From an uncultured Clostridia bacterium (GTDB lineage: Bacteria; Bacillota; Clostridia; Christensenellales; CAG-314), in assembly GCA_947628135.1 (NCBI GenBank), contig CANQYT010000003.1, forward strand, positions 3,387-67,386: DNA of 64,000 nucleotides. The letters are read 5' to 3'. The translations under genes were made by a program, and so were the position numbers. This document shows positions 6,752-61,480 of this stretch, one piece after another. The stretch's first letter is position 1. Each line of letters begins with the position of its first letter. The notes under the pieces are model-generated. The model was not told where the DNA came from. It saw only the letters and a program-made list of their open reading frames with translations, and searched no databases.

Positions 6752-6840
6752 GATTTTGATGTAATTTTCGGTCAAATTACTCTCTAAAACGTCAAAATAC
6801 AGAATACTATTACAGACATAATAGTAAAAAGAGGAAAAAT

Positions 6841-8049
6841 ATGAACAAAGAAATAGCGGAAGCATTAGACAATACTCGGCAAATTTTTGCGGAATTGGAT
6901 GAAATCTCTCTCTACAACGAAAAAAAGGTTATCGACGCGTTTTGCAAAAACAACGTGGCTTTGAGGCATTTCAACGGGACGACCGGATACGGTTCGGACG
7001 ACGTAGGCAGAGAAACGCTTGGCAAGGTGCTTGCCGATATTTTCGAGGCGGACAAAGCGATAGTAAGTCCGTTGATTGCGTCGGGAACTGCGGCAATCAG
7101 TCTGGCGCTGTTCGGAGTGCTTCGTCCCAAAGATCGCGTTCTTTCCGTTACGGGGTCGCCTTACGATACGCTTTCCGACGTTGTTTTCGGAGAGGGAATA
7201 GGCAGTCTGAAAGATTTCGGAATTGATTTCGACGCGATAGACTTGGTGGACGGAGGGTTCGATTACCCTAAAATTGAACGTTATCTCAAAACCAACACCG
7301 TCAAAATGATTTACGTACAGCGTTCCAAGGGGTATGCGCTACGTCCCGCGCTTTCCGTAAAGCAAATAGGGCAACTGTGCGCATTCGTAAAGGAATATGC
7401 TCCCAACGCAGTTATTTTCTGCGACAATTGCTACGGCGAATTTGTCGAGAAAACCGAACCCACGTCGGTTGGAGCAGATTTATGCGCAGGCTCGTTTATC
7501 AAAAATATCGGCGGCGGGATCGCTCCTACGGGCGGATACGTAGTCGGGCGTGCCGATTTGGTGGATCTGGTCGCCGGAAGGCTTACCGCGCCATCCGTCG
7601 GAATGGAAATCGGAAGTTATCAGGCGGGTTACCGTTTGTTTTATCAGGGACTTTTCCTCGCGCCGCACACTGTCAATCAGGCACTGAAAACCGCAACGCT
7701 GTTTTCCTACGTTCTGTCTGAAAGAGGTTACGACGTAATTCCGAAAAGGGGCGATCATCTCGGGGATATCGTTTGTTCCATTCGCCTCGGGTCCCCGGAT
7801 TCGATGATAAAATTCTGCCGCGCAATTCAATCCGTGTCGCCCGTTGACGGGTTTGTAAAGCCCGAACCTTGGCGTCAGGCGGGTTATGCGGACAAAGTCA
7901 TTATGGCGGCGGGGTGTTTTGTTGAGGGCGCGTCCATCGAATTAAGTTGCGACGGTCCGATACGACCGCCCTATACGGTGTATTTGCAAGGCGGTTTGAC
8001 GCTGGAACACGGCATTTTGGCATTGGAAAAGGTGTTGGAAGAACTATGA
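6841..8049 (+). CDS. aluminium-resistance / methionine gamma-lyase family PLP enzyme (YnbB-like)
   Basis: 402-aa ORF with a good RBS (aaagagga). The N-terminal region and overall length match the family that neighbours hflX in Bacillus (ynbA-ynbB). Confidence 0.8.
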   Translation: MNKEIAEALDNTRQIFAELDEISLYNEKKVIDAFCKNNVALRHFNGTTGYGSDDVGRETLGKVLADIFEADKAIVSPLIASGTAAISLALFGVLRPKDRVLSVTGSPYDTLSDVVFGEGIGSLKDFGIDFDAIDLVDGGFDYPKIERYLKTNTVKMIYVQRSKGYALRPALSVKQIGQLCAFVKEYAPNAVIFCDNCYGEFVEKTEPTSVGADLCAGSFIKNIGGGIAPTGGYVVGRADLVDLVAGRLTAPSVGMEIGSYQAGYRLFYQGLFLAPHTVNQALKTATLFSYVLSERGYDVIPKRGDHLGDIVCSIRLGSPDSMIKFCRAIQSVSPVDGFVKPEPWRQAGYADKVIMAAGCFVEGASIELSCDGPIRPPYTVYLQGGLTLEHGILALEKVLEEL

Positions 8050-8304
8050 CAACAAGCTAATTTTTTCCGCTAAACTTCGATTTGTAAAACTAATTTTGCG
8101 CAATTGACAAAAAGATTAGGTGAATTTTGTTCAATTACAATAAAATTTTATTGTCGCACAAGGTAAGGCAAGATAGATTTTGCAACAAACGCAATTTTTG
8201 TCCGTAATCGAACGGTGCGAAATTATGTAACGAAGAAGTCGGCTGCGCGCGGCAAATTTGCGGTTTGCGCATAGGAAGGTTGCCTTGCGCAAAAGGAGAG
8301 GGCA

Positions 8305-8853
8305 ATGAAATTCGGAAACAGACTTGTCGAATTACGCGAAAAGCGCAACTTGTCGCAGGAGGAACTTGCCGACAAACTGCACGTATCGCGGCAAACCGTA
8401 TCCAATTGGGAGAATGACAAAGTAAGTATCGATGTTGACAAGGCGGCGGAAATATGCCGATTTTTCGGCGTGGATATGAATTATCTTTTTATGGAAAGCG
8501 GAAACGAGAGTTTGCGTGAAGATACCGTTTTCAATACAAGTCAACTCGACGCGCAAAACAGAGCAACCGGGTATACACGTTCGCAGTCACCTACCAAAAT
8601 CTGGCTTACGGCAATCATAATCAGCGTCGTAATGTGCGTCGTATTTACCGTGTTCGAAACGGTCGTTTTATTGCGGGGCGATATTGGAAATGCGGCAACG
8701 GTATTGACTTCGACGTTGTTGCTCTGCGCGGTCATATTCGGCGGTTTGGCGCTGTTGATGTCCCTTTTTATGCTTGTTTTGTCCGCTGTGATGTACCGCA
8801 GATCCAAACAAAAAGACAGCGCAGAGACCAATTGTGACGGCACAAAACAATAA
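8305..8853 (+). CDS. XRE-family HTH regulator with C-terminal transmembrane segments
   Basis: 182 aa. The N-terminus LRE-KRNLSQEELADKLHVSRQTVSNWEN is a classic HTH_3. The C-terminal half has 2-3 hydrophobic helices. RBS aaaggagag. Confidence 0.85.
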   Translation: MKFGNRLVELREKRNLSQEELADKLHVSRQTVSNWENDKVSIDVDKAAEICRFFGVDMNYLFMESGNESLREDTVFNTSQLDAQNRATGYTRSQSPTKIWLTAIIISVVMCVVFTVFETVVLLRGDIGNAATVLTSTLLLCAVIFGGLALLMSLFMLVLSAVMYRRSKQKDSAETNCDGTKQ

Positions 8854-9025
8854 GGTCGACGAATTTTCGACTGATTTTTATAGTTGACTATCGCAAACGA
8901 AAAAAAACTTAAAGCCGTGATTAGATTTTTGATTGCAATCAACAAGTCTGCGCGCATTGCCTCCTCCAACACAGTAGATTTTTTTGCGTAAATAAAATAC
9001 GGGAGATTACAACGAAATTGATTGT

Positions 9026-9100
9026 CGGAAAAATACAAAAAAGTGGTGAGTTCGGTACGTGAAAATAGGGAAAGACCTACGAACATTCAACACAGGGGAT
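9026..9100 (+). repeat. copy 1 of a duplicated ~75-bp module (SD-like GGTGAG plus GTG start)
   Basis: 'cggaaaaatacaaaaaagtggtgagttcggtacgtgaaaat...' aligns without indels to 9490-9530 at an offset of 464 nt. Confidence 0.8.
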
Positions 9101-9489
9101 TACAACGAAAAAGAATCGCTCATAAAATATAAATTCAAAAGGATTCAACGGACATTTTTTTTACAGCGCAAAGACAATTTTTTCGGTTTCAAAATGCGGT
9201 TTGTCGCTCAGTTACTACAATATGAAAAAACTTTGGAAGCTATTACCGACAGTTTTTCTCGTATGGTTAATAGCCAGGAAAACCTGTATTTCAAGACTAT
9301 CTGCTGAATAATAAGAGATGTAAACTTTCCGAAAATATTTTTGTAATCGAGTCAAAATTGATTGATTTAACAAATCAACTTAAAAAATCGTAAAATAAAG
9401 TGTAACCAACTAACGAAATCTCTGCCCAAAATTTATATTATAAAAAAATGCAAACTTTTAATTTCCATTTTTTAGTAATAATTAATTGG

Positions 9490-9565
9490 CGGAAGAATAC
9501 GAAAATGGGGTGAGTTCGGTGCGTGAAAATTGGAGAATTACGACGAATATTCAACTTTGATTACG
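9490..9565 (+). repeat. copy 2 of the duplicated ~75-bp module
   Basis: 'cggaagaatacgaaaatggggtgagttcggtgcgtgaaaat...'. The downstream reading frame stops after 22 codons. Confidence 0.8.
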
Positions 9566-10329
9566 TCCGTTTCAGAAGTATCTTAGCATAGCGAGACATA
9601 AAAAATCAGTCGCAAACTACACAGCGACTTGTCAATTTTATTTATCACTTCGACAATTGAATAGTGCGTTACAGCGGAAATATTCTTCATACAAATTATG
9701 CTTTCAAACTAAGAAAAAAGAATTAGAGATTTTCAAACTATCTCCCCAATATGATTCTGATTACTGTTTTGTTCTATGCTTTTAATACGATTAAAAAAGC
9801 GCCGAATTCGTAATTAAAAAAAATTGAAGTTTTTCTTATGTCTCTAAAAGAGGTTTAGCGGAACTTTTAACAAAATTTTTAAGTTATAAAGAAAGTCGTA
9901 TTTACATTTTTATGAAAACCGTCGATAAAGACCGTTACAAGTTTTTTTGATTTCGTCGAATCGTTGTTTCACTCGGAGTCGCGACAAAAATTTATCAAAA
10001 ATATCTTAGCATTCAATTTACTCAAAAAAAGTGATGTAATTAATTTCGTAAATGCTTTACGTCCTTTTTAGCATTAAAAAAACAACGTTGTGATTTTATA
10101 AGATTATTTGGCTAAGCAAAAGCGCGAGAAGAATCAAGATTTTAAAAGAAGTTTTCAGCTTTCCAAACTGTCTCACAAAGACGTTTTAACAGAATTTTGT
10201 ACTAAGTGCGAGAAGAAGTTGATGATTTTTCGAAGCGTCGCTTTAACGGCAGCGAATAAATTTTTTGTTACGGATATTTTTATTAAACATAAAATTCAAA
10301 CGGATTAAAATGATAACAAAGCAGCACAA

Positions 10330-10457
10330 AATAAAATCAGATAAGTCGTTAGAGCGCAGTAAATCGACAATAAAGATTTGAACACGAAATAATTGTTTTG
10401 TTTAAGAGTAATAAAGTGAATTACATAGAATTATCAAAATTTGAAGGCGAGGCAGTT
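10330..10457 (+). repeat. left arm of an imperfect inverted repeat (best-conserved core 10416-10457)
   Basis: 'gtgaattacatagaattatcaaaatttgaaggcgaggcag' matches the reverse complement of 10979-11020. Weaker similarity extends ~125 bp outward ('aaaataaaatcag', 'tagagcg'). Confidence 0.8.
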
Positions 10458-10556
10458 CATAGTCCGTTGTAAAGGAATATTTGATAATTTATTTTATAAA
10501 GAATAATTTCGGACGTTTCAGAAGCAAAACCACTCTCAAAAATCGCTTTTTTACCC

Positions 10557-10594
10557 ATATCTATTCGCAAAAGCTGCCTTTTGCGAATAGATAT
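10557..10594. other. perfect 17-bp stem / 4-nt loop hairpin
   Basis: 'atatctattcgcaaaag' ctgc 'cttttgcgaatagatat'. It lies inside the inverted-repeat-flanked unique core. Confidence 0.85.
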
Positions 10595-10867
10595 GTATTA
10601 GTGTGCTTATGCCTCATACATCAAAAAACTATTCGCGCCGCATCTTTTGCCGTTGAAATTCTTGTCAATACAGAGCCGTGCTGTAACCATTAAGAGAGAT
10701 AAATTTTGGCAACGACATTGCCGTCAAAGAGCAATCAGCTGAGATTCTCGCCCCACCAAATGTGAAACTCTTTGTAACAACAGCAACCGAATTGCACCGC
10801 CCCTAACAGAATTTTCAGTCAGACCGAGCAAAAAAGTTCAAACTCGAATTTTCAGCGTGACACATCA

Positions 10868-10905
10868 GCGCTTCCGGAGGAGATAATATTCGGTAGCGCC
10901 TTTTT
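10868..10905 (+). terminator. candidate intrinsic terminator inside the unique core
   Basis: Stem gcgcttccg / cggtagcgc with one internal mismatch and a 14-nt loop, followed by cTTTTTg. Confidence 0.4.
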
Positions 10906-10978
10906 GCACTACATTTACGGCGATCGGTTCTTAGCCGGTGTTAATATAAGTTAATAGTCATTCTATAAAAGGTGTACG

Positions 10979-11100
10979 ACTGCTCGCCTTCAAATTTTGA
11001 TAATTATAGTAATTTCACGTACTACTTAACAAAATAATTAGTACGCAATCTCATTTGAAGATTACGCTCTACTAAGACGTCTCTGATTTTATTTTCAATC
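10979..11100 (-). repeat. right arm of the imperfect inverted repeat
   Basis: The reverse complement reads 'gtgaaattactataattatcaaaatttgaaggcgagcag', matching the left arm apart from a few mismatches and indels. Confidence 0.8.
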
Positions 11101-11114
11101 AGCGAAGAAATAGA

Positions 11115-11326
11115 GAGTACGTTTTGGAACGTGTACTTGCATTTACAAACTAACTCGTAATAGTTCCTCGCGGGAAGTTGCTCAAAGCATATTCAATACT
11201 AAACTTTATTTTAAGTTTTATTCTCGGCAAAAACTTTTACCTTGTAAAAAACTCTTTTCAAAGAGAACAGTAGCACCCCGGAAAACAAAAAATTGACTTC
11301 TATTAGCACAGACTTTGAAAAAAAAG
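11115..11326 (-). repeat. repeat-family copy L (inverted relative to 14956-15170)
   Basis: It aligns along its full length to the reverse complement of 14956-15170. Roughly four of five positions are identical by eye. Confidence 0.85.
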
Positions 11327-11694
11327 CAGCAAATAAAGACTTGTTTAAGATTCGTTGACTTTATTGTTTTGTACCGTTCAATTGCTCTTTATGCAGTCTC
11401 ATTGCTTGGATATGCTTTGTACACCACAACGGGCAAAACACACATAACAAGGGATATCAAAGCGCCAAACCTCCGAATATTTTGCGCGAGCAATGCGGTT
11501 ATGCTCAATCGCTATCTGTAAACTGGCGACATATTTGTTTTGAAACTTCCAAAAGCCATATTGCACTATTCCTTTTGACAATTTCAAACGTGATTGTTTT
11601 GCAAACAGTGTGACAAAATGATGTTTCAATGTCAACCCTGCTACACCACCCTTTGATACCGTCAAATTTTATGTAAAAATTATTCGCAAAATAT

Positions 11695-11723
11695 TTGCTT
11701 TACGAATAGATTAGCGTTATAAT
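11695..11723 (+). promoter_or_regulatory. candidate sigma-A promoter ~200 nt upstream of the recombinase gene
   Basis: TTGCTT, 17-nt spacer, TATAAT. Confidence 0.4.
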
Positions 11724-11923
11724 ATAGTTGACAACAAACAAAATATATAAAATTAGACGAAAATACGGGCGAAAAGGCAGAATTTCAATCAATTTCTCAC
11801 CTGCAAACCGCATTTCAAACAGAAAATTTTTTGCGACGTAGAAAAAACGGGCATTCGCGTTTCGTTGAATCCCCTGTTACACCGCCGCTCGCCGTCAGAA
11901 CATATAAAAAGGAGAACAACACC

Positions 11924-12991
11924 GTGAGTCAAACCTATTTCAACAACAGAGACGCCGAAAATCTCGAAAAATTGGACAAAATACTCGATGAGGATCTGCC
12001 CGACTTCTGTCGTGAATACTTCGTCGGTATATCCGCTAACACAACAACGCTTACGAGGTTGAACTACGGCTACGACATACGCACGTTTTTCAACTATCTC
12101 GTGACGAAAATTTCCCGTTTCAAGGGCAAATCGTCCAAGGAAATCACTCCTCACGACATCGAATCGCTGTCCCCCTTTGAAATCGAGGCGTATCTTAGTT
12201 ACGTCGAGATATACCGCAAGGACGGCAACATTGTCAAAAACGGCGCGCGCGGAAAAAGCAGAAAACTTGCCGCTATACGCTCTATGGTGAAATATTTCGA
12301 AAAGAAGCAAATAATTCGCTACAACCCCACCGCATCCGTAGACACTCCCAAATTGCGCGAGAAAGAAATTATCCGACTTGACGGCAACGAAATAGAAACT
12401 ATGCTCGACGTCGTGGACACAGGCGAAGGGCTCACCGAACGCCAGCAAAAATACCAGGAAAACACCCGTATTCGCGATCTGGCAATGGTAAGTCTGCTCC
12501 TCGGGACGGGCATACGCGTAAGCGAACTTGTCGGAATAGATATAGACGACGTCAATTTCGACGATCTGAGTTTTGTCGTTACGCGCAAAGGCGGCGCGAG
12601 GGTTATTTTGTATTTTTCGGAAGAAATTGCCGGATACTTGTACGATTACTACTGCCGCCGCGTTGCCGACAGCACTGTAAAAGACGAGCCCGCGCTTTTC
12701 CTTTCCCTGCAAAAAAGGCGCATAACCACTCGCGCGGTAGAAAACATTGTAAAAAAATACAGCCTTGTCGCTACGCCGCTGAAACATATCACGCCTCACA
12801 AACTGCGCTCCACTTTCGGTACGCAACTCTACCGCAACACGGGGGACATTTACGTAGTTGCCGACGTTCTCGGACACAAGGACGTCAACACTACCAAACG
12901 CCACTATGCGGCGATCACCGAGGACATTCGGCGCAATGCAAGTACGAAAATCAGTCTCAGGCGCACGCCGACGGACGACGACGGAGAATAA
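11924..12991 (+). CDS. Xer-like tyrosine site-specific recombinase
   Basis: The ORF opens at 11831, but GTG at 11924 follows aaaaGGAG. An N-terminal SAM-like domain is present. The catalytic region carries GIRVSEL, HKLRSTFGT, LGHKDVNTT and the nucleophile Tyr in TKRHYA. Confidence 0.88.
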   Translation: MSQTYFNNRDAENLEKLDKILDEDLPDFCREYFVGISANTTTLTRLNYGYDIRTFFNYLVTKISRFKGKSSKEITPHDIESLSPFEIEAYLSYVEIYRKDGNIVKNGARGKSRKLAAIRSMVKYFEKKQIIRYNPTASVDTPKLREKEIIRLDGNEIETMLDVVDTGEGLTERQQKYQENTRIRDLAMVSLLLGTGIRVSELVGIDIDDVNFDDLSFVVTRKGGARVILYFSEEIAGYLYDYYCRRVADSTVKDEPALFLSLQKRRITTRAVENIVKKYSLVATPLKHITPHKLRSTFGTQLYRNTGDIYVVADVLGHKDVNTTKRHYAAITEDIRRNASTKISLRRTPTDDDGE

Positions 12992-14255: not shown

Positions 14256-14269
14256 AGAACAATTGTTTG
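14256..14269. promoter_or_regulatory. LexA (Cheo/SOS) box upstream of lexA
   Basis: 'aGAACaattGTTTg' differs at one position from the Firmicute GAAC-N4-GTTC consensus. It lies 44 nt upstream of the lexA ATG. Confidence 0.6.
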
Positions 14270-15504: not shown

Positions 15505-16335
15505 TTACAGATTTTTTAATATGCTGTATTTTTCCAAAAGACGGTCGCACTCGCGATAGTCTGGAACTGCATTCGAAACAAACTCCCAAAAACCTTCGTC
15601 GTGCAGCGTATGTTCGAAATGTGCAAATCCGTGCGCAATCACGTATCGCCGCAAATCGGGCGGAAGTTGCGCCAGACGAAAGTCAAAGCAAAGGGATCTG
15701 CTCGCCGCAAGCGAGCACTTCACCCAAAAGTCGGCGTTGTCTCTGAATTCTATTTTTACGGGACAAAGGGAAACGGCGCTTCCAAATGCCGCAACTTCCT
15801 CAGCCACACGCTCCTCTGCAACTCTTTTCAAAAAATTTTTGACGGCTTTTAGGCGCGCGTCCCTGTCGGAAAAATGCTTTTCGGAAATGAACAACACGTC
15901 TTTTTCCAGGTAACTTTTGTTTCCAATCGCCGAACGCACGTTTACGACGTTGCCGTTCAAAATGGTCTTGTATCCGTTTATTATGTCTTTTTTGTCGTCG
16001 CGTACGGGCAGATTCCTTTCCTCGGCAATAGGTTTTACGTAGCGACCCGCTTGCGCGTAATTTACTTCGGGTTTGTTGTTTTGCGTCAATACGGGCGGAT
16101 TCTCCTTTTTTTGCGACTTTATCCAGCCCATATTGTCGGCGATAACTTGTTTTATGCGCTTGTCTGACATAAAGGCGTACGCCGTCACTTTCAGCACGCC
16201 CGCCTCTACTTTCAGTTTTACCACGCGCCTGAGCGTCCTTGTCAACTCCACTTTCATAGTCAAAAGTGTAACGTCCTTTTGCTGAAAATATTTGATTTCT
16301 TTTACAAATTCTGCAATTTTATTGTCAAAAAGCAC
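15505..16335 (-). CDS. DUF45/YgjP-like (M48-type) metallopeptidase homolog with a degenerate HExxH motif
   Basis: 276 aa with a GTG start after gaaagg. The C-terminal region IAHGFAHFEHTLHDEGFW aligns with the family HELxHxxxxNH motif, but Glu is replaced by Gly. Confidence 0.7.
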   Translation of the reverse strand: MLFDNKIAEFVKEIKYFQQKDVTLLTMKVELTRTLRRVVKLKVEAGVLKVTAYAFMSDKRIKQVIADNMGWIKSQKKENPPVLTQNNKPEVNYAQAGRYVKPIAEERNLPVRDDKKDIINGYKTILNGNVVNVRSAIGNKSYLEKDVLFISEKHFSDRDARLKAVKNFLKRVAEERVAEEVAAFGSAVSLCPVKIEFRDNADFWVKCSLAASRSLCFDFRLAQLPPDLRRYVIAHGFAHFEHTLHDEGFWEFVSNAVPDYRECDRLLEKYSILKNL

Positions 16336-16354: not shown

Positions 16355-16377
16355 AATACTATGTCACAAATAGTATT
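16355..16377. promoter_or_regulatory. palindromic motif site S1 (aATACTAT-gtcacaa-ATAGTATt)
   Basis: 7-8 bp perfect arms with a 7-nt spacer. It lies 20 nt upstream of the DUF45 start and 8 nt from the -35 of the padR-like promoter. The 24-mer is identical to 48802-48825. Confidence 0.6.
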
Positions 16378-16385
16378 TTAAAATA

Positions 16386-16414
16386 TTGACATTTTTGTAC
16401 ATATATTCTACAAT
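16386..16414 (+). promoter_or_regulatory. sigma-A promoter of the PadR-like gene
   Basis: TTGACA, 17-nt spacer, TACAAT. An AGGAGG RBS and the ATG at 16433 follow. Confidence 0.65.
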
Positions 16415-16432: not shown

Positions 16433-17788
16433 ATGAGCGGTGATTTTACCTTTTTGAAAGGCAACATCGAAACCATAATTTTGTGTTCGCTGTACAACGG
16501 CAACAAATACGGTTACGAAATTGCAAAAGAAATCAAGGAACGCACAAGCAACCGTTACGAAATAAAACAACCCACGCTCTACTCCTACCTCAAAAGGTTG
16601 GAGGAAGATGACCTGATCGTATCCTATTGGGGCGAAAATTCCAACGGCGGCCGCCGCCGCTACTACGCTCTCACCAAGACGGGCAAAGCCAACTGCGAAC
16701 AGTTTATTTCCGAATGGCAGTATCAACGCAGCGTGCTGAGCGATCTTGTGGACGGCACGGCGGAAGGTTCGGAAATATCGCAGGAAGAAGCCACACCGCT
16801 GTTCGGGCGCAGAAGTCCGAAGCGCGCAAAGAACGATCGCTATCGCGAGGAGATGGAAGAACAGGACGAGATATCTCGCCGTCTCAAAGAACTTTCGGGA
16901 ATAAGCGAAGAGACTTCGGAAGAAGCCGCCCCCGCGCCTCAACAAACGGTTCAGCAGACCGTCTCCGACAGCGTTGCCGAGGAAGAGGACGAGGACGTTC
17001 TCGAACAACTCGACGAAGAGGAAGAGCCGCCCGTTCAAACCGAAACGGAAACTCAAACGGTATCGCAAACGCAGGACGATCTTTCTCGTTTCGAAGTCAA
17101 TCAGGACAACGCGGATGTTTTCATTCAGGATTTCGACGAGCGTGCGCGCGAAGTATCCGAGAGACAATCGGCAAACGACGGCGAAAACTATCAGCACGTT
17201 CTCAACAACATAATCGGCGATCAACTCGACGGTATGCAGCAGGAAACGACCGAAACCGTCGTCACCACCGCTTACTACGAGGACAGACACGCCGCATTGG
17301 AGGACGTAGCCGACAGCCTTGCCAAAGAGGGAATACGGCTTCGCATTTACAACCACGCAACGGCAACTTACAAGTCAAAGATGCTTATACCTATGACGAA
17401 AGTACTCTGCGAGACTTCTTGGCTTACTTACGCGGTAGCCTTCGTCTACTTCGGGATATTTGCGCTTTGTTCTATGTCGGGCGGGCTTTGGATACCTTTT
17501 GTGGTGACGCTTGCCGTGTTGGCGCTCGTACCCATTGGGTTCACAATTTACGCAATTGTCGATCCCACCCGCAAAAACAAACCCGCATTCAACTTTAAGT
17601 TGTCAATGATCATCGCCTGCACCGTCTGCGCGATAATCATTCTCGGTTCGGTCGGTATAAGCGCGCTTTGCAACGTCGAATTTATTGACTTCGCTCAAAC
17701 TTCGCGCAGCATATTCATTCCGATGGGTATCGCTATACTTGTTCCGTTGTTCGTGGGCTTTTACGACGTTTTGTACAGACAGTATTAA
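16433..17788 (+). CDS. PadR-family regulator fused to an acidic linker and a C-terminal multi-TM domain
   Basis: 451 aa. The N-terminus ETIILCSLYNGNKYGYEIAKEI...PTLYSYLKRLEEDDLI is a PadR winged HTH. The middle is D/E/Q/T-rich. The last ~130 aa form about 4 hydrophobic helices. Confidence 0.85.
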   Translation: MSGDFTFLKGNIETIILCSLYNGNKYGYEIAKEIKERTSNRYEIKQPTLYSYLKRLEEDDLIVSYWGENSNGGRRRYYALTKTGKANCEQFISEWQYQRSVLSDLVDGTAEGSEISQEEATPLFGRRSPKRAKNDRYREEMEEQDEISRRLKELSGISEETSEEAAPAPQQTVQQTVSDSVAEEEDEDVLEQLDEEEEPPVQTETETQTVSQTQDDLSRFEVNQDNADVFIQDFDERAREVSERQSANDGENYQHVLNNIIGDQLDGMQQETTETVVTTAYYEDRHAALEDVADSLAKEGIRLRIYNHATATYKSKMLIPMTKVLCETSWLTYAVAFVYFGIFALCSMSGGLWIPFVVTLAVLALVPIGFTIYAIVDPTRKNKPAFNFKLSMIIACTVCAIIILGSVGISALCNVEFIDFAQTSRSIFIPMGIAILVPLFVGFYDVLYRQY

Positions 17789-21466: not shown

Positions 21467-21487
21467 ATACTATGTTTGAAATAGTAC
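21467..21487. promoter_or_regulatory. palindromic motif site S3 (ATACTAT-gtttgaa-ATAGTAc)
   Basis: It has the same arms as S1/S2 with a different spacer. It lies about 40 nt upstream of the nifS ATG. Confidence 0.5.
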
Positions 21488-21519
21488 TCTCTATTTTGCC
21501 GATTTTTGTAGTAATTCCG

Positions 21520-23915: not shown

Positions 23916-26174
23916 TCAGTTTACTTTGTCAAAAAGTCTGCCTTTTGTGTATGGCGCGCGTTCAACGTAACCGTCGTCTGTGCCCGCATTGATATTGGCA
24001 TAATGACGGGCAACCGCCTCGTCGCAATCTATCAGATACCTGCCCGGGCGTTTCAGCCTGCCCGCCGCGGATAACTTTTTCCCGTTCGTCAACTCGAAAG
24101 TACACGTTTGACCTTTGCGCCGCACTATCGCAAATTCGTTGCCCTGCTCGTCGCGGTAGCGTATGGGCGGAACTTTCTCGCAATCCCCGCAGCGGAACGC
24201 TCTCCCGCTCGTTTCGCCGTACAGCAATTTGTACGGACAGTGGACCAATTTCATCAAAGTAATACTTCCGTCCACGAAAATCAGCCCGTCTCTTCTTGCG
24301 AAACGCGACGTTTCCGCAACAGTCAGTTCCTGCGAATATACAAACGTTTCCGCGTCGGAGAATTGTTCCGCTATCCAATCGTTGTAGATGTTGAGTCCGC
24401 TTCCCGCGACGTACTTCGAACCGAATACTCTTGCAAGTTCCACCTGCCCCACGTTGTGACACACGACCGACGGACGAAACTTTTCAAACAGATCTCGCAC
24501 GTATTGCGAACGGTAAAAACTCGGCAGATCCACGTACGCTTTGTAGCGCGCCGCCGTGCGAAATTCCTTTTCCGACAATTCGGACGGTTTGTATATAAGC
24601 AATTGAGCAAACTCTTTCGCCTTTTCAAGTTCTTGTTCCGTCTTGCAGATGACGGCAACCATCGGCTCGCCGCCTTTTGACGCGGGCGCGCTCGGCTCGA
24701 CGACGGACAAATTTGCATTGCGGCGACAAGTAAATCGTTCGTTGTAGCGTCTTACCACAGCCCGTTTCAATTCGTTCAACACCTGCCTGCGCAGAGCGTT
24801 TATTTGCGACTTTGCAAGGAAAATCTTGCCGATTTTTATATCTATGTCACAAATAGTAAAACACGAATCGCCGCTTTTTCGTAGTTGTTCGGCTATTTCC
24901 GATTGCGTTGACGGGCTGTTCACAGCGGACGGTATTTTGTAATCGGAGAATATTTCCGCTTGCGCACCGCCGCATTCGGCAAACACTCGCGCGTATTCGT
25001 TCGGTTGCGCCTCGAAAACAACCTTTGCAGACAACGTTCTGCGCCGAGAAAGTATTTCCGCGTTTAGTTTGACGGAAGTCGTCCTACGCGCTTCCAAGCC
25101 GTCCCGCACCGCTTTGCCGAACTCCGCCGTCACGTATTCCGTTCCGCTTGACGTTGCCACTGCGCCGCACACTTCCGAGCCGTTGTCGAAAATTTTGAAA
25201 CAGTCGCCCTTGCACACGGGGACTCTGCACCGCAGTCCTTTGCCCTGCACCGTTGCCGCGGCAACTCCCGCGTGACTCTGACAGAGGGGCGAAATTATTT
25301 CCGTGTTGCCCCCTGCAAGGTAACTCAATCGGGACATATCTCTGTTGTAAATTTCCGCAAGGTCGCGCTCGTTGGTTTCGTCGCACCGAAAACCGTTGTC
25401 AAACAGTTCTCTGTAAACCTTGGAAGTCACTCCCGCATATTCCGCACGGCGGTTTCGTCCCTCTATTTTGTAAACGGACACGCCCGCTTTGTCCAACAGA
25501 GGGGCTACGGTCGCGCCGCACAGATCACGCGCGGACAGAAAATATCCCTTTTTCCCGTCGGCAAAATACAATTTGCGGCAGGGTTGCGCGCACAAACCTC
25601 TGTTGCCGCTGTTGCCGCCCACCATTGCGGAAAACAGGCACTGCCCCGATTGGCAAACGCACGTTGCGCCGTGAATGAAAAATTCGGTGTTTATACCCGT
25701 TGCGACTACCTGCTCTATGTCGTCCAGCGAACTCTCCCTTGCGCACACGACTGTCGTCGCGCCGCACTTTTTCACAAACTCCGCGCCGTATCCGTCGTGA
25801 ACGTTCAGTTGGGTGCTTGCGACAACGTCGAAAGGTTTCGGCAAACGCGCGGCAAGCGCCATCAGCGCAAGATCCGTCACAATGACCCCGTCGGCGTTGC
25901 TTACGTAAATTTTTTTAAGCAAATCGACTGCGCTTGAAAATTCGTCGTTTTTTACGGACGTATTGAGCGCGACGTACACTTTTACGCCGTACAAATGGCA
26001 ATAGTCGACCCATTCCGCAAGATTTTCCTGCGTAAAATTGGGCGCTTTCATTCGGGCGTTGAAACTTTCCAGCCCCAAGTATACCGAGTCACAGCCGTTG
26101 TTGACGGCGGCAACCAACTGTCCCGCATCCCCTGCGGGAGCAAGTATTTCTCTGTGTTTTTCCGGCATTGACAT
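23916..26174 (-). CDS. U32-family peptidase, long form
   Basis: 752 aa. The N-terminal U32 signature region is EILAPAGD...DSVYLG...FNAR...YVALNT. Confidence 0.85.
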   Translation of the reverse strand: MSMPEKHREILAPAGDAGQLVAAVNNGCDSVYLGLESFNARMKAPNFTQENLAEWVDYCHLYGVKVYVALNTSVKNDEFSSAVDLLKKIYVSNADGVIVTDLALMALAARLPKPFDVVASTQLNVHDGYGAEFVKKCGATTVVCARESSLDDIEQVVATGINTEFFIHGATCVCQSGQCLFSAMVGGNSGNRGLCAQPCRKLYFADGKKGYFLSARDLCGATVAPLLDKAGVSVYKIEGRNRRAEYAGVTSKVYRELFDNGFRCDETNERDLAEIYNRDMSRLSYLAGGNTEIISPLCQSHAGVAAATVQGKGLRCRVPVCKGDCFKIFDNGSEVCGAVATSSGTEYVTAEFGKAVRDGLEARRTTSVKLNAEILSRRRTLSAKVVFEAQPNEYARVFAECGGAQAEIFSDYKIPSAVNSPSTQSEIAEQLRKSGDSCFTICDIDIKIGKIFLAKSQINALRRQVLNELKRAVVRRYNERFTCRRNANLSVVEPSAPASKGGEPMVAVICKTEQELEKAKEFAQLLIYKPSELSEKEFRTAARYKAYVDLPSFYRSQYVRDLFEKFRPSVVCHNVGQVELARVFGSKYVAGSGLNIYNDWIAEQFSDAETFVYSQELTVAETSRFARRDGLIFVDGSITLMKLVHCPYKLLYGETSGRAFRCGDCEKVPPIRYRDEQGNEFAIVRRKGQTCTFELTNGKKLSAAGRLKRPGRYLIDCDEAVARHYANINAGTDDGYVERAPYTKGRLFDKVN

Positions 26175-29597: not shown

Positions 29598-29853
29598 ATT
29601 TATCTCCTAAAAAAAGCCCCAAGCGAAATGCTTAGGGCGATAAAATTTGTCGCGGTACCACCTAATTCAAGAGACAGAGTCTCTCCTTTGATGTTTGCTA
29701 ACGGAAACAACCCGCAAGCGGCTACTTTGCTTTCACCGTTTGAACTCGGAAGGGAATATCTTTTTGCGCGCATACGGGGCTTGCACCATCCCCCGTTCGC
29801 TGAAAATGCGTTGATCGCAAACTCTTGTGCTTCGTCAACGTTTGTATTTAGTA
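29598..29853 (-). promoter_or_regulatory. T-box leader (Phe, specifier UUC) controlling pheST
   Basis: The minus strand carries the T-box 'gaattaggtggtaccgcgac' (29649-29668). A terminator cccuaagc/gcuugggg plus U7 follows. A candidate specifier 'gagUUCaaa' is at 29742-29744. Confidence 0.88.
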
Positions 29854-29859
29854 TAGCAA

Positions 29860-29888
29860 AAAATATTGCGTTTGACAACAGTTTTTGA
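29860..29888 (-). promoter_or_regulatory. promoter of the pheST T-box leader
   Basis: The minus strand reads TTGTCA, 17-nt spacer, TATACT. Confidence 0.55.
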
Positions 29889-34761: not shown

Positions 34762-35268
34762 ATTTCTCCTATTTCTTGGCAATTTCGCCGTTTTTGTTTT
34801 CCAAATCGAACGCCGACGGAAAAAGCGTCTCCTTTTCGTCGCTGTTGCTTCCGAATTTTCTTTCCTTTGGATATTTCATACAGTCATTGTTGACAACAAA
34901 AGGAACGTTTATTCACGACGCGGGGCAATGGAAAACACGCCGTTGCAAAAACCTTTCAGTTTCATTACAGCCTGTAAACTGAGTTGGAAAAACAGCCCAA
35001 TCACGTAGCATATCGGTAAACGTCCCGAACTATGTAATAAATTTTAATTTCATCGCCTCGTGCATTTTGATTGGTGTTGAGATTTTTATTATGGTGAATT
35101 TATTTGAGAATTGTCGATGTATTTCAATGTGTGACTTCTTTTATCGGGAAAAGATATCGCTGTCACGCTGCTCATTTTTTGTCCAATTTCTTTTGATTAA
35201 ACAATAGTGATTTCATTATCTTGAAAGAAATTTTTCGGTTTTCGAAAGCAAATAAATTGCCTTTTTGG

Positions 35269-35289
35269 ATACTATGTGTGTAATAGTAT
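35269..35289. promoter_or_regulatory. palindromic motif site S4 (ATACTAT-gtgtgta-ATAGTAT)
   Basis: Perfect 7-bp arms with a 7-nt spacer, in the ORF-free region upstream of the spoVA operon. Confidence 0.5.
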
Positions 35290-35439
35290 TTTATAAATTG
35301 CCGAAAAACGGTATAGTTTAACTGAAAATAAGCGCAAATTCTTATAGAAAAAAAGTAGGATTTCTTTAATCAGACTATACAATATAAGAATGTTTTTATT
35401 GACCACAATTTTATTGTATCAAAATATTTATAATATAAC

Positions 35440-35815
35440 TCAATGGAGAAAACGTTCACAATGCAAAACCCTTGATTGTGATTTGAACACAAAGTTATAT
35501 TCAAAATTATTTATATGATTTTTAACCAGAGGTTAACTGCGATGCAAAATCGTTAATTGCAGGTTACCAAAAATTTTGCGCAATCACTTCATTATGCTTT
35601 TAATGAAATATCGTCATTTCACAAATATATAAAATTTCTTTAATTAGAGATTACACACAAAGAAAACTAGTTTAATTATGCCTTGAACGATATTTTACGT
35701 ATTATAAAATTCGTTTAACCAAAGATTCTATGCAATGTAAAATCGTTATTTCAGATTACCCACAATGCGACGTGAAAGTGTTTGATTATGCTTTGACGAA
35801 AATCATCGTAGTATA
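35440..35815 (+). repeat. degenerate tandem modules (~95-190 bp period)
   Basis: The recurrent pattern is 'atgcaa..aaaatcgtta.tt.cag.ttacc...attatgcttt.a.g.aa.atc.tc'. Modules start near 35521 and 35712, with partial copies at 35446 and 35641. Confidence 0.65.
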
Positions 35816-35861
35816 AATAATTTATTTTTTGCTACAAGCAAAATTATTTTATCTGTCGATA

Positions 35862-35892
35862 ACAAAATAAAAACCCGCCGAATATCGGCAGG
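35862..35892 (-). terminator. intrinsic terminator of glgA
   Basis: The minus strand reads ccugccg auauu cggcggg followed by UUUUUAUUUU. Confidence 0.8.
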
Positions 35893-35915
35893 TCGAATAA
35901 AACTTTTTACGTAAT

Positions 35916-48801: not shown

Positions 48802-48824
48802 AATACTATGTCACAAATAGTATT
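48802..48824. promoter_or_regulatory. palindromic motif site S2 in the argR leader
   Basis: It is identical to S1, including the asymmetric spacer gtcacaa. It lies 43-65 nt upstream of the argR ATG. Confidence 0.6.
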
Positions 48825-48879
48825 TGTTTTTCACACAAAATCGTGTCTTTTTCGACTATTTGTTCTAATAGACGAAATA

Positions 48880-48908
48880 ATTATACACCATTGCTAAAAG
48901 TTTTTCAA
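48880..48908 (-). promoter_or_regulatory. sigma-A promoter of argR-recN
   Basis: The minus strand reads TTGAAA, 17-nt spacer, TGtTATAAT (extended -10). The -35 overlaps the dxs stop. Confidence 0.6.
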
Positions 48909-51374: not shown

Positions 51375-51434
51375 ATCTCTCCGTAATATATTTTTAGCAG
51401 AAAATGTTTGATAGGTTTTCTGCTCGAAGTAACA

Positions 51435-52052
51435 AAAAAAGGTGGTGACTCGTCGGATAAACCTTACGGCATAGGTTCAGTAGGGTTTCCCAAGCAAAAA
51501 CTTCCCGTCGCCGAAGAAGCAGTTTCCTCTTAGTTTCGCCTGTGCGGCATCACTGCTCGCACAACTGAATCGCCACTTAGTCCGTACTATAATCTCCGAC
51601 AAGCCTGAATTGCAGTCTAGAAGATTTCCTTTGCAGATGCCGACGTATTTTAGTTTCTTTTGCAGAATTCATTTCGTAAAGCATTCGAGCGCGCGCCGTA
51701 GGCCAACGGATACGCGTCGTTCAGTACTCCCAAAATTCCACTCAAAACAAGCTACACTGTACACAGCTTCGTATTCACCGCATAGCAGGTTTAACCTCAG
51801 AGAGTAATTGCTTATCTATTAGGCAACCACCCCGTAGAGTCTCCGCGACTGATGGGGATAGAGCGTATGCCGTTACGCCTTACCCACCAATCTTAACTTC
51901 CAGCACCAGCCCCCGTTTGGGCAACGAAAGCAAGCACAAGAAACTTCATCGTTGTGCCCGTCGACGGTCTTTTAGGCCCGCCTTCAATACGTCGATTTCT
52001 GACTAGAATACTGCACCACCGATTTTATTTAGTTGTATCGGGTTCTCACCCG
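51435..52052 (-). ncRNA. ole: OLE (ornate, large, extremophilic) RNA
   Basis: ~620-nt ORF-free, GC-richer, helix-dense segment between ispA and oapA, with its own promoter. The 5' GGUGGUG (52014-52020) pairs with 3' CACCACC (51442-51448), which is followed by a U-run. GNRA and UUCG-type hairpins are present. The synteny nusB-folD-xseAB-ispA-[RNA]-oapA-dxs matches the described OLE locus. Confidence 0.75.
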
Positions 52053-59115: not shown

Positions 59116-59562
59116 TCAAATAAGCACTATTCCCGACATCGCGCCGAGCAACGCTCCCAATTTGGGAAAGATTGCCGCCTTGCCTGCCTCGGCGGTATAT
59201 TTCGCCGAAAGTTCTCCGAAACGCTGCGAATAAATGTCCATCTGTTTGAGCAGTTCCGCCGATGAAACGGCTTTGAGACAGTTGAAGAAATCTTCCAGCA
59301 GGTGTTTTTCCGCAGCATTCAGCGCGCAAACAGGTTTACCGCCGTTCAGATACGCTCCGAATTCCTTTCCGCAGTTTTCGGCAAATTGAGAGTTGAACAA
59401 ATCCGCTTCCAACTGCCGTCCTTGCACGTTCACCCGAAAAAGCGCCGCATATCTGTTGAGATCGTCGAAGAACCTTGCCTTGCCGCGAATCCGCCTTTCA
59501 AAGTACTTTCCTATGGCAAATCCGCACGCAGAACACGCCAAAATTACTATTATGTCTGTCAT
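59116..59562 (-). CDS. spoIIIAB: stage III sporulation protein AB
   Basis: 148 aa with an N-terminal TM helix, a GspF-like soluble domain and a C-terminal TM helix. Confidence 0.85.
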   Translation of the reverse strand: MTDIIVILACSACGFAIGKYFERRIRGKARFFDDLNRYAALFRVNVQGRQLEADLFNSQFAENCGKEFGAYLNGGKPVCALNAAEKHLLEDFFNCLKAVSSAELLKQMDIYSQRFGELSAKYTAEAGKAAIFPKLGALLGAMSGIVLI

Positions 59563-59574
59563 ATTAGTCTATAT

Positions 59575-60417
59575 TCAGCCGTTTTTCGCTATGGTTGAGC
59601 CGCAAAGCGGAACTATGCGATACGGTCTGCCGACGCGTTCGAGAACAACCGCGTTTGCAAAAACACCTTTCAAATCGAACTTTCCGTAAAAGTCCTCAAC
59701 GCTTCGCCCGTGCGAACTGCAAGCAACGCTTACTCCGCTGTTTGCCGCTTTACGCAACGCGGCAACATCCTCCGCTGCAATTTCATCGCATACTATCCAT
59801 TGCGGAGACATAGCGCGAACACCCGTTTCGAAGGCATAGTCTTTCGACGACCATTTAAGTACGTCGCAATCGACGCACTCCGCAACTTCGTCGTAAAACA
59901 ATTCGCCCCTTTCGTCCACTGCAAGAACGTTGTACTTTTGGGAAAGTTTCACCGCAATATCTCGCAACATTGTCGTTTTACCGCTGCAAGGCGGTCCTAT
60001 CACCACCACGTTTCCCGAAGAGCAACAGTCGAGTATTCGTTTGTCCGCCGTAGAAACGTAATGAGGGATACGGAAACAAAGCGATGAGTAACTGCGAAAA
60101 ACAGGTTCGCTTGCTCCCGCAAGTTCGCCGCAAACGCCCACACGGACGCCGTCTTCCAATGTGAAGAATCCGCGAGCCAACATTTTTTCGTAGGCGTATA
60201 CGGAATTGTTGCACGCACGTCGCACGATCTCGTCGCAAGCGTATCCCGAAACAATGCCTCCCCGACCGTTTGTCAAGCCTTTTTCACCCAATACGTACCA
60301 ACTGCCGCCCACGTTTATGCGTATCGGCTTGCCGTTGCGTATGCGTATTTCTCTGACGTCGGCAACGTTGTGCAGTCTCTGCCCCACTTCGTCAGGGAGA
60401 CACGCCCAAATCTTCAT
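59575..60417 (-). CDS. spoIIIAA: stage III sporulation protein AA (secretion-type ATPase)
   Basis: Walker A GPPCSGKTT and Walker B-like IVCDEI are present. The ATG at 60417 (MKIWACLPDEV) is preferred over the ORF opening at 60492. Confidence 0.88.
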   Translation of the reverse strand: MKIWACLPDEVGQRLHNVADVREIRIRNGKPIRINVGGSWYVLGEKGLTNGRGGIVSGYACDEIVRRACNNSVYAYEKMLARGFFTLEDGVRVGVCGELAGASEPVFRSYSSLCFRIPHYVSTADKRILDCCSSGNVVVIGPPCSGKTTMLRDIAVKLSQKYNVLAVDERGELFYDEVAECVDCDVLKWSSKDYAFETGVRAMSPQWIVCDEIAAEDVAALRKAANSGVSVACSSHGRSVEDFYGKFDLKGVFANAVVLERVGRPYRIVPLCGSTIAKNG

Positions 60418-61480
60418 ACAATAAAATATTGGACAAGCATTTGTTTTATGCCTGATATCGGCGATAATAAAACGCGTTGCGAACGTTGCCAATTTCCTGC
60501 ATAAAGGACTAAGAAATCACCGCCGGATAAAACACGAAAATTTTTACAGCAAAATTAACCGTCGAATTATCCGACGGCTCTGCAAGTAATTACAACTGTT
60601 TCTCCTTGACTCCGAAAATTACACGTTTCAAAAATGTGCTTTCCTTTAACAACACAGAATTTTTCTATGAAAAGATTTATTTTCCACTCAATTTTTTGCG
60701 TGTTTCTCCCCTTTCGCTCACACGCTTATATTCTTTTATGCAAGTTGGCGGCGAAATAATTTCGCTTGTTTTACTTTAACATTTCGACACAAAACACGTC
60801 GCAATATTCGCTGTCAGTGCCACCGCTTTTTATGCAATTACTCCAATCAAATGCACTTTCGCTATCTCATCTATTGTCAAACCCGGTGGACTTTTACACG
60901 TACAATAAATACCCGCCGACAAAGTTGTCTCTATTAAAAAATGTATACGTTAAAAATGAGGTAAGATATGTTTAATTACAAGTTAAAAACCCTTGATTAA
61001 ATCAAACGCAGAATTTTCAGCAAATATAAATCGATGTTTGCGCGTATACACACGCTTGCAACTCGATAAAACCGCAGATATACTGACTTTTATTGTTGAC
61101 ATTGGCAACAAAGAAAATTATCAACAAGAATGTATTAAGAAAATTGAATGGTGATCTTCTTTTTTATAAAATGATTGTCTTTGTTTTTCCATAAAATAAT
61201 CTTCGTTGCTTTTGCATAGTATAAGTTTCCTTTTTTTGATATTTCCTAAAAATAAACTTTTTGCTTTCTTATAAAAAATTTTATAATAAAAATTTTCTCT
61301 CGTTCTTAGGGGCAAAGCAAGGACTGAGTACGTTTCTACATACTATATTCCTGTATTGTTCAATTGACTATAACGCTCGCAATGTTGCGGCGACGTTTTT
61401 TCAAAAAAAGCCGACCGCTTCGGAAACCTCCAAAGGGATCGGGCAAGCCGTCGCATATTACGAAAATCGGAGTACTCAGT

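Follow-up and report, generated by a model that had tools for sequence, protein, structure and literature searches.

A palindrome of two 7-bp arms around a 7-nt spacer recurs between and within the genes of an uncultured gut Clostridia bacterium. As far as sequence comparison can tell, it is the core of a real, conserved and clade-specific cis-regulatory DNA module of about 51 bp. The DNA analysed was a single stretch of 64,000 nucleotides, referred to below as the window. We conclude that the core probably acts as double-stranded DNA and that its reader is most simply a dimeric protein, and we see an even chance that the module represents an operator family for a candidate dimeric regulator, with a PadR-like protein as the top candidate. 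A first-pass annotation of the same DNA had raised two ideas, an unassigned regulon and an RNA hairpin family. The regulon stands in outline, on the strength of conserved orthologous sites, but the hairpin falls for lack of covariation.

The palindromic core and its oriented flank

A search of the window found the pattern ATACTATNNNNNNNATAGTAT exactly at 16356-16376, 35269-35289 and 48803-48823, as compared with no match in 100 dinucleotide-preserving shuffles. When up to three mismatches were allowed, there were 9 matches in the window versus 0.96 expected, and N7 alone recurs as the spacing between the arms. The G+C content of the window is about 50%, and therefore AT-richness does not explain the pattern. 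A fourth core, at 21467-21487, carries one mismatch (its final base is C). The first-pass annotation had assigned 7-bp arms to all four sites; the palindromes are present, three of them exact, but the arms at 21467-21487 are imperfect and two of the intervals (16355-16377 and 48802-48824) had been drawn one base too wide on each side. It had also described the spacers as different. They do vary by locus, but they follow a rule, T-n-n-n-r-A-C on the strand of the downstream gene, and the GT said to begin each spacer is what this rule looks like on the reverse strand. Its broader claim, that a cis element recurs here non-randomly, is conserved and has dimeric-site symmetry, is borne out by the three exact cores versus none in shuffles and by conservation among orthologs. 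A literature search on the two heptamers returned unrelated papers only.

An oriented module of about 51 nt is built on this palindrome as its core. When the non-coding copies are anchored on the core, about 30 extra positions are conserved, on one side only, and the consensus (flank first, then core) is A.TAY..CR-RAAAT-ygGCA-wwwT.AgA / ATACTAT-T-w-C-A-r-A-C-ATAGTAT. The flank consists of an A.TAY..C box, an A/T-rich stretch and an A.AAT that abuts the left arm, and it confers direction on the module; the A at position -3 is found in 41 of 42 copies. For comparison, 80 loci around NifS homologs were collected, about 38 of them (57-76% NifS identity) from bins of uncultured gut Clostridia, and were scanned with a 51-nt weight matrix at a clade threshold of at least 28 bits. 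In the window, six copies score above 30 bits, whereas 20 shuffles give nothing above 12 bits. The 44 clade sources, 825 kb in total, contain 72 copies of at least 28 bits, with scores up to 60 bits. In contrast, 646 kb of outgroup loci contain one weak match of 22.6 bits and none at the clade threshold. Among the matches listed, those in low-GC metagenome and viral contigs have the core without the flank, and metagenome matches at 46-51% G+C have the flank. Homologs of the RecA N-terminus, used as a route to more regulon members, retrieved genomes outside the clade. Judged from these scans, the element is confined to one lineage of uncultured gut Clostridia.

The flagged copy (16356..16406, minus strand, 47.4 bits), with its exact core at 16356-16376 and a 30-nt flank extending to 16406, separates the divergent ygjP-like and padR-like genes and is read on the ygjP strand. 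The padR-like promoter (TTGACA-17-TACAAT, 16386..16414, plus strand, 11/12 in the promoter scan) stands back-to-back with it, the -35 box overlapping the flank. The second copy (21467..21517, minus strand, 60.1 bits) occupies the mutS2-nifS intergenic region, and its core at 21467-21487 reads GTACTATTTCAAACATAGTAT on the minus strand. The third (35269..35319, minus strand, exact core, 55.6 bits) is located about 490-510 nt upstream of spoVAC, in a 1.1-kb AT-rich stretch free of ORFs (34783-35915) between glgA and spoVAC; no Rfam match was found at E<=1 near this copy or in the ORF-free stretch.

The fourth copy (48803..48823, exact core) is found in the 5' leader of argR, where the ATG follows after 44 nt. 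It has an ambiguous orientation, since the spacer suits the argR sense strand and the flank the antisense strand, and the matrix gives 30.9 bits on the minus versus 43.1 bits on the plus strand. A canonical argR promoter (TTGAAA-17-(TG)TATAAT, 48880..48908, minus strand, 11/12 in the promoter scan) lies upstream of the copy, which is thus part of the transcribed leader. This promoter is invariant among strains, and TGTATAAT is found upstream in the relatives too. The first-pass annotation had placed the site between transcription start and start codon for three genes, which is true of argR only. The same leader contains a small hairpin, ACACgattttGTGT (48833-48846, minus strand), that shows strain differences on both sides (CACG...CGTG) and seems to have been inserted into the fourth copy's flank.

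Two looser relatives had been suggested as well. The one at 6805-6826 is a true member of the family, with its core at 6804-6824 and a full flank (6774..6824, plus strand, 54.6 bits). It lies at the junction of miaA and the ynbB-like gene, followed by GAGG and then by an ATG 16 nt past the core; its right arm is ATAATAG at N7, and the earlier 8-6-8 reading describes the same DNA. The other, near 48855 (48854..48873, minus strand), does not belong to the family: the matrix misses it, and its palindromy is gone in the relative L250. Two further copies, both absent from the first-pass annotation, were found. One (59547..59597, minus strand, 37.3 bits; core 59547-59567) lies at the spoIIIAA/spoIIIAB junction, with the spoIIIAB ATG (59562-59560) within its left arm. 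The second is a weak copy, TTACTATTTGTGACATAGATA (24839..24859, minus strand), inside a gene for a 752-aa U32-like protein, where it encodes F-T-I-C-D-I-D. The flank, the orientation rule, the copies inside ORFs or overlapping start codons and the clade restriction are likewise new. On the identity of the neighbouring genes (YgjP-like/DUF45, PadR-like, ArgR, NifS-ThiI, SpoVAC/AD and the YnbB-like lyase) the two analyses agree.

Conservation and placement of the copies

The element is conserved in orthologous leaders, the point on which the first-pass annotation had let its idea stand or fall, and so it survives that test. The nifS leader carries a copy in about 30 of 38 related genomes; in five relatives nifS abuts mutS2 and there is no copy. 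The argR-leader copy shows no change among 10 strain variants, and three of four relatives (L250, L252 and L253) have it. At the spoIIIAA/spoIIIAB junction all four relatives have it, the spoIIIAB ATG always falling on core positions 5-7, and no Shine-Dalgarno sequence precedes spoIIIAB in the window or in these four. The miaA/ynbB junction has a copy in L256 and L257 and none in L255, and the ygjP/padR divergent region has one in 7/7 species (the window, L037, L041, L056, L255, L256 and L257). Further copies precede pheS, thiI, the U32-like gene, recA, a rluD-like gene and spoIVB; the recA copy, seen in L096, is absent in L255 and L256.

Spacers and flanks cluster by locus and not by genome. 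Orthologous copies share spacers and paralogous ones do not, which suggests that the copies are old, vertically inherited and under selection. Purifying selection on them is evident across species at 57-76% protein identity and includes synonymous sites. This is best seen in the U32-like gene (23916-26174, minus strand, in the window). The copy lies inside an ORF of about 750 aa in most relatives, where the position scores 21-37 bits, and the codons TAT (16/16 species), ACT (22/23), ATT (20/22), GAC (20/20) and ATA (21/22) are fixed. At equally conserved residues nearby, synonymous sites vary freely. The in-frame copy specifies the peptide Y-T-I-T-D-I-V, with synonymous sites frozen in more than 20 species. 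Together with spoIIIAB, the gene offers a clean case of a regulatory DNA signal overlapping coding sequence.

Among the 72 copies, 47 lie between co-directional genes with the same polarity, 8 within the U32-like ORF on the sense strand and 4 in the ygjP/padR divergent region. Nine form a class of 'same/opposite' settings, mostly in the convergent region after thiI, where copy orientation varies between species, and 4 are antisense or ambiguous, including the argR copies of the window and L250. The settings thus comprise divergent promoters, positions 16-80 bp before start codons in operons or 5' leaders (nifS-thiI, ynbB, argR-recN, pheS and recA), the start codon itself (spoIIIAB) and the interior of an ORF (U32-like). 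Many copies lie 16-18 nt before the ATG and end 6-7 nt before the Shine-Dalgarno sequence. The module is usually the gene-proximal signal, with another one distal to it: TTGAAA-17-TGTATAAT at argR, a Cheo-like box at recA, and at pheS in L037 a T-box, the copy lying between T-box and pheS.

Competing explanations

The hairpin idea, an AU-rich RNA family whose stem of 7 bp closes a loop of 7 nt, starts from the complementary arms of the four sites in the window. Over 42 copies, however, RNAalifold predicts 0 pairs, and the stem is 84.4% paired versus 83.5% in shuffles. The central C-G pair is broken in 17/42 copies and the outer pair in 17/42, and only 3 cells are changed on both sides. With pairing at the shuffle level and no compensatory change, we regard this explanation as scarcely tenable. 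Breakage of the central pair is mostly a G-to-A change in the right arm that retains the half-site ATAYTAT. Such changes, which break pairing yet keep ATAYTAT, suggest that the element acts at the DNA level. A long-range helix that would pair the right arm with the upstream box fares no better (63.4% paired versus 63.6% in shuffles, no covariation). At gathering and E-value thresholds, Rfam matches in the window are limited to OLE and T-box, and the nifS leader yields nothing at E<=5. The module could instead be an unstructured sense-strand mRNA motif of about 50 nt, bound by a protein, an sRNA or the ribosome and affecting translation or stability near the start codon. About 59 of the 72 copies have the sense orientation of the genes around them, the ORF-embedded series included, many end just short of the Shine-Dalgarno sequence as noted above, and in spoIIIAB of five species the module replaces that sequence and contains the ATG. 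Nevertheless, inverted-repeat symmetry without pairing is left unexplained by such a motif, the ygjP/padR copy is upstream of the padR -35 and probably also of the ygjP -35 and is likely untranscribed, some copies are antisense or past terminators (position 1171 in L040, position 8289 in L256, and L019), and there is no match to any Rfam family. We therefore consider an mRNA motif improbable. In addition, the 300-450 nt located 3' of the pheS-distal copies are not conserved, giving no sign of a conserved RNA there, and neither a tRNA nor an Rfam gene was found after the orphan copies.

The main rival to an operator is a promoter. A canonical sigma-A promoter was rejected, since its -35 is missing from the module: the best alignment over 42 copies reaches 6.5/12, with the -35 at most 2.5/6, and canonical sigma-A promoters are normal elsewhere in the same genomes. 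A promoter built into the module thus remains a conjecture. SigmaH, sigmaD, sigmaF and sigmaG, compared by their consensus spacings and with C. difficile Table S6, have similar boxes, but their spacing fails. We think it rather unlikely that the module is a gene-proximal secondary promoter for an alternative sigma factor of the sporulation mother-cell type (sigmaK/sigmaE) and that housekeeping and repair genes are thereby expressed independently of a distal LexA box, T-box or operon promoter, with no separate repressor. Each arm plus one flanking base gives AATACTAT and CATAGTAT, and these 8-mers are identical to mapped sigmaK -10 boxes of C. difficile (CD1891; CD0896, CD1067 and CD3569; PMC3789822 Table S7). 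Boxes of this CATA..AT class are frequent in the module: AATACTAT is found in 28/42 copies and CATAGTAT or CATAATAT in 18/42. In the same C. difficile promoters transcription starts 6 nt after the 8-mer (PMC3789822 Table S7), a distance that would set +1 on an A conserved in 39/42 copies of the module. C. difficile mother-cell promoters also serve the housekeeping genes glmS, murE and ssb (PMC3789822). The gene-proximal position of the module relative to a canonical promoter, Cheo-like box or T-box suits such a role, as does the linkage of copies to spoIIIA, spoVA and spoIVB. Moreover, the nifS ATG of L048 and L030 lies 6 nt past the second box without a Shine-Dalgarno sequence, and the spoIIIAA ATG of the clade likewise follows a sigmaE-like -10. 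On the other hand, the -35 (ATA or AC, 15-18 nt upstream) is weak: ATA at a suitable spacing occurs in 20/42 copies, which is near chance level for AT-rich sequence, and the conserved C is 1-2 nt too far. Unlike the C. difficile promoters, the module has two -10-like boxes in inverted symmetry, both conserved and left unexplained by a sigma factor, and an additional box upstream. The module is missing from the clade's bona fide sigmaE-type promoter at spoIIIAA, and copies are found in convergent regions, in a few antisense positions and, in one case, between two divergent -35 boxes. Since boxes and +1 fit while the -35 is weak and the spoIIIAA promoter does without the module, we retain a sporulation-type promoter as the chief alternative, and the operator reading may optionally include a weak built-in promoter. 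If the sporulation-sigma reading were right, the motif would mark housekeeping genes that are kept on during spore formation. The spoIIIAA start itself (60406-60438, minus strand; also in L250, L252 and L254) is preceded by GCTTGTCC-AATATTTTATTGT-ATG with no Shine-Dalgarno sequence and looks like a sigmaE-type promoter with a leaderless mRNA; a SpoIIID-like GGACAAG box is on the opposite strand.

A selfish or once-mobile miniature repeat of the REP or MITE kind, with copies that share no regulatory function, would account for an information content that is high for a binding site (45-60 bits). It would also fit the variable presence of copies at orthologous junctions, such as mutS2-nifS, the different orientations at the same locus (L040 versus L030/L033, and L012/L022 versus L019) and the weakly inverted ends, ACTATGTC...GACATAGT. 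We consider it very unlikely, because there is no target-site duplication at any boundary, the similarity of paralogs in the same genome does not exceed that of orthologs in different species, and purifying selection across species is strong, synonymous sites included. A phage origin was also rejected: viral contigs contain no copy and yield chance matches only. A chromosome-level polar site, that is, a Ter-like replication-fork trap or an organiser of the terminus domain, is highly improbable. The sign change of GC skew near 10 kb, with the plus-strand copy to its left and five minus-strand copies to its right, would suit it, and ORF-embedded sites are typical of such systems. However, the orientation in the convergent region after thiI differs between species, copies have fixed positions relative to start codons, and 6 copies in 64 kb with conservation at gene junctions suit gene regulation better. 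A dif-like site was not found.

Candidate regulator and genomic setting

In all seven species with the ygjP/padR copy, the core is 9-10 bp upstream of the padR -35, and in three of them there is also TTTTGACA on the ygjP side, with the core upstream of it too; the core there is therefore probably untranscribed DNA. The PadR-like protein (16433-17788, plus strand, 451 aa) combines a winged helix at its N-terminus with an acidic linker of about 200 aa and membrane segments at its C-terminus, and its full-length homologs (46-81% identity) are common across the clade. The YgjP-like gene (DUF45; 15505-16257, minus strand) is always divergent from it in the window, L037, L041, L056 and L255-L257. 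Its product has H[GACT]xxH in place of the catalytic HExxH in 7/7 species checked, and a look-up of this shortened protein returned no record. The layout is typical of an autoregulated repressor, and this clade-wide, membrane-anchored PadR-like protein may be regarded as the best lead to the regulator.

Operators of the PadR family have the consensus ATGT-N8-ACAT, which the core ATACTAT-N7-ATAGTAT does not match. The general features are similar: an inverted repeat is present in the candidate regulator's own promoter region, where a padR-family gene diverges from its neighbour, at a fixed 9-10 bp from the padR -35, and the 11-bp centre-to-centre spacing of CTAT-N7-ATAG compares with 12 bp for ATGT-N8-ACAT. 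The element differs in its half-site sequence, in its one-sided 30-bp flank and in its distribution, about one copy per 11 kb at unrelated genes as opposed to a local regulon. The candidate itself departs from the family by its long acidic linker and C-terminal membrane segments. Among other known systems, CIRCE/HrcA of the Firmicutes (9-9-9) shares equal arm and spacer lengths, a position just upstream of start codons and the presence in several operons. However, CIRCE has GC-containing arms, serves heat-shock genes and is widely distributed, whereas the element is 7-7-7, AT-rich and clade-specific, with an asymmetric flank and no sign of an RNA role. Rok's winged-helix domain prefers AACTA/TACTA and reads the minor groove (PMC6212790). 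Either AACTA or TACTA is present in each of the module's three boxes, but the sites of Rok, a nucleoid silencer of Bacillus, are loose and unspaced, in contrast to the strict spacing and orthologous conservation of the element.

LexA was rejected as the regulator; the first-pass annotation had already seen no match to its consensus. The element has no GAAC/GTTC, and lexA has a separate Cheo-like box upstream, AGAACAATTGTTTG, at 14256-14269; an exact GAAC-N4-GTTC does not occur in the window. A sequence similar to this Cheo-type box, AAACCATTGTTTAT, is found upstream of recA in L096. In L256 an extra, antisense copy of the element (8269-8289) lies between hflX and lexA with its AGA flank facing lexA, as it faces the gene at padR and at argR of the window. 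Known ArgR boxes are unlike the core, and the usual consensus sequences of Spo0A, CodY, ArgR, NrdR, SpoIIID, ScoC, FapR, the Deinococcus RDRM and B. subtilis Ter bear only partial resemblances to the element.

On the operator reading, a regulator, most likely a dimeric one, would recognise two ATAYTAT half-sites 14 bp apart in double-stranded DNA, and the asymmetric 30-bp flank would extend the site on one side and give it direction. The bound protein would co-regulate the neighbouring genes; both the binding and the direction of regulation are presumed here. It may do so by occluding a weak promoter within the module, which would have the -10-like AATACTAT and the conserved A at its predicted +1, or alternatively by blocking RNA polymerase arriving from upstream. 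The best candidate for the binder is the PadR-like protein, whose own -35 box is 9-10 bp from a conserved copy. Several points weigh against an operator. About 30 bits of one-sided flank cannot be explained by a symmetric operator alone, and neither can the polarity that most non-coding copies share with neighbouring genes. The targets span tRNA modification, DNA repair and sporulation, an unusual mixture of functions for a PadR-type regulon, and a membrane-anchored factor is awkward for about one site per 11 kb unless it is released. Taken to its extreme, the operator reading would imply a previously unseen global regulon, in which a membrane-tethered PadR-type regulator acts with an altered YgjP-like metallopeptidase (H-x-x-x-H) on sites of about 50 bp that double as promoters; this is possible but doubtful. 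If true, genes of tRNA modification, DNA repair and sporulation would be linked, and selection would write the sites into coding sequence, as exemplified by the U32-like gene and by the opening codons of spoIIIAB.

The lineage is known solely from metagenome bins (rabbit, ruminant, chicken and human gut). A 51-bp motif found across about 40 species-level genomes may open direct access to one of the main regulatory circuits of the lineage, with a clear candidate regulator (PadR-like) to express and a usable marker for annotating operon-internal control points.

Other features of the region are worth recording. A full-length OLE RNA (51426-52035, minus strand, 438 bits) lies among dxs, an ispA-like gene and xseAB, that is, among isoprenoid and DNA-repair genes, and the region is syntenic in the relatives. 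A T-box leader (29630-29847, minus strand) precedes pheS, with a canonical promoter TTGTCA-17-TATACT at 29850-29878. At about 8000-12000, GC skew changes sign, and an island of 31-36% G+C with few ORFs lies beside a gene for a Xer-like tyrosine recombinase (11831-12991); this could be a terminus region or an inserted element. Finally, with regard to the relatives (L028, L044 and L046), NCBI taxonomy places Candidatus Fimimonas in the Myxococcaceae, and some related bins are labelled Corallococcus, but their gene content, with spoIIIA, spoVA, T-box and OLE, is clostridial.
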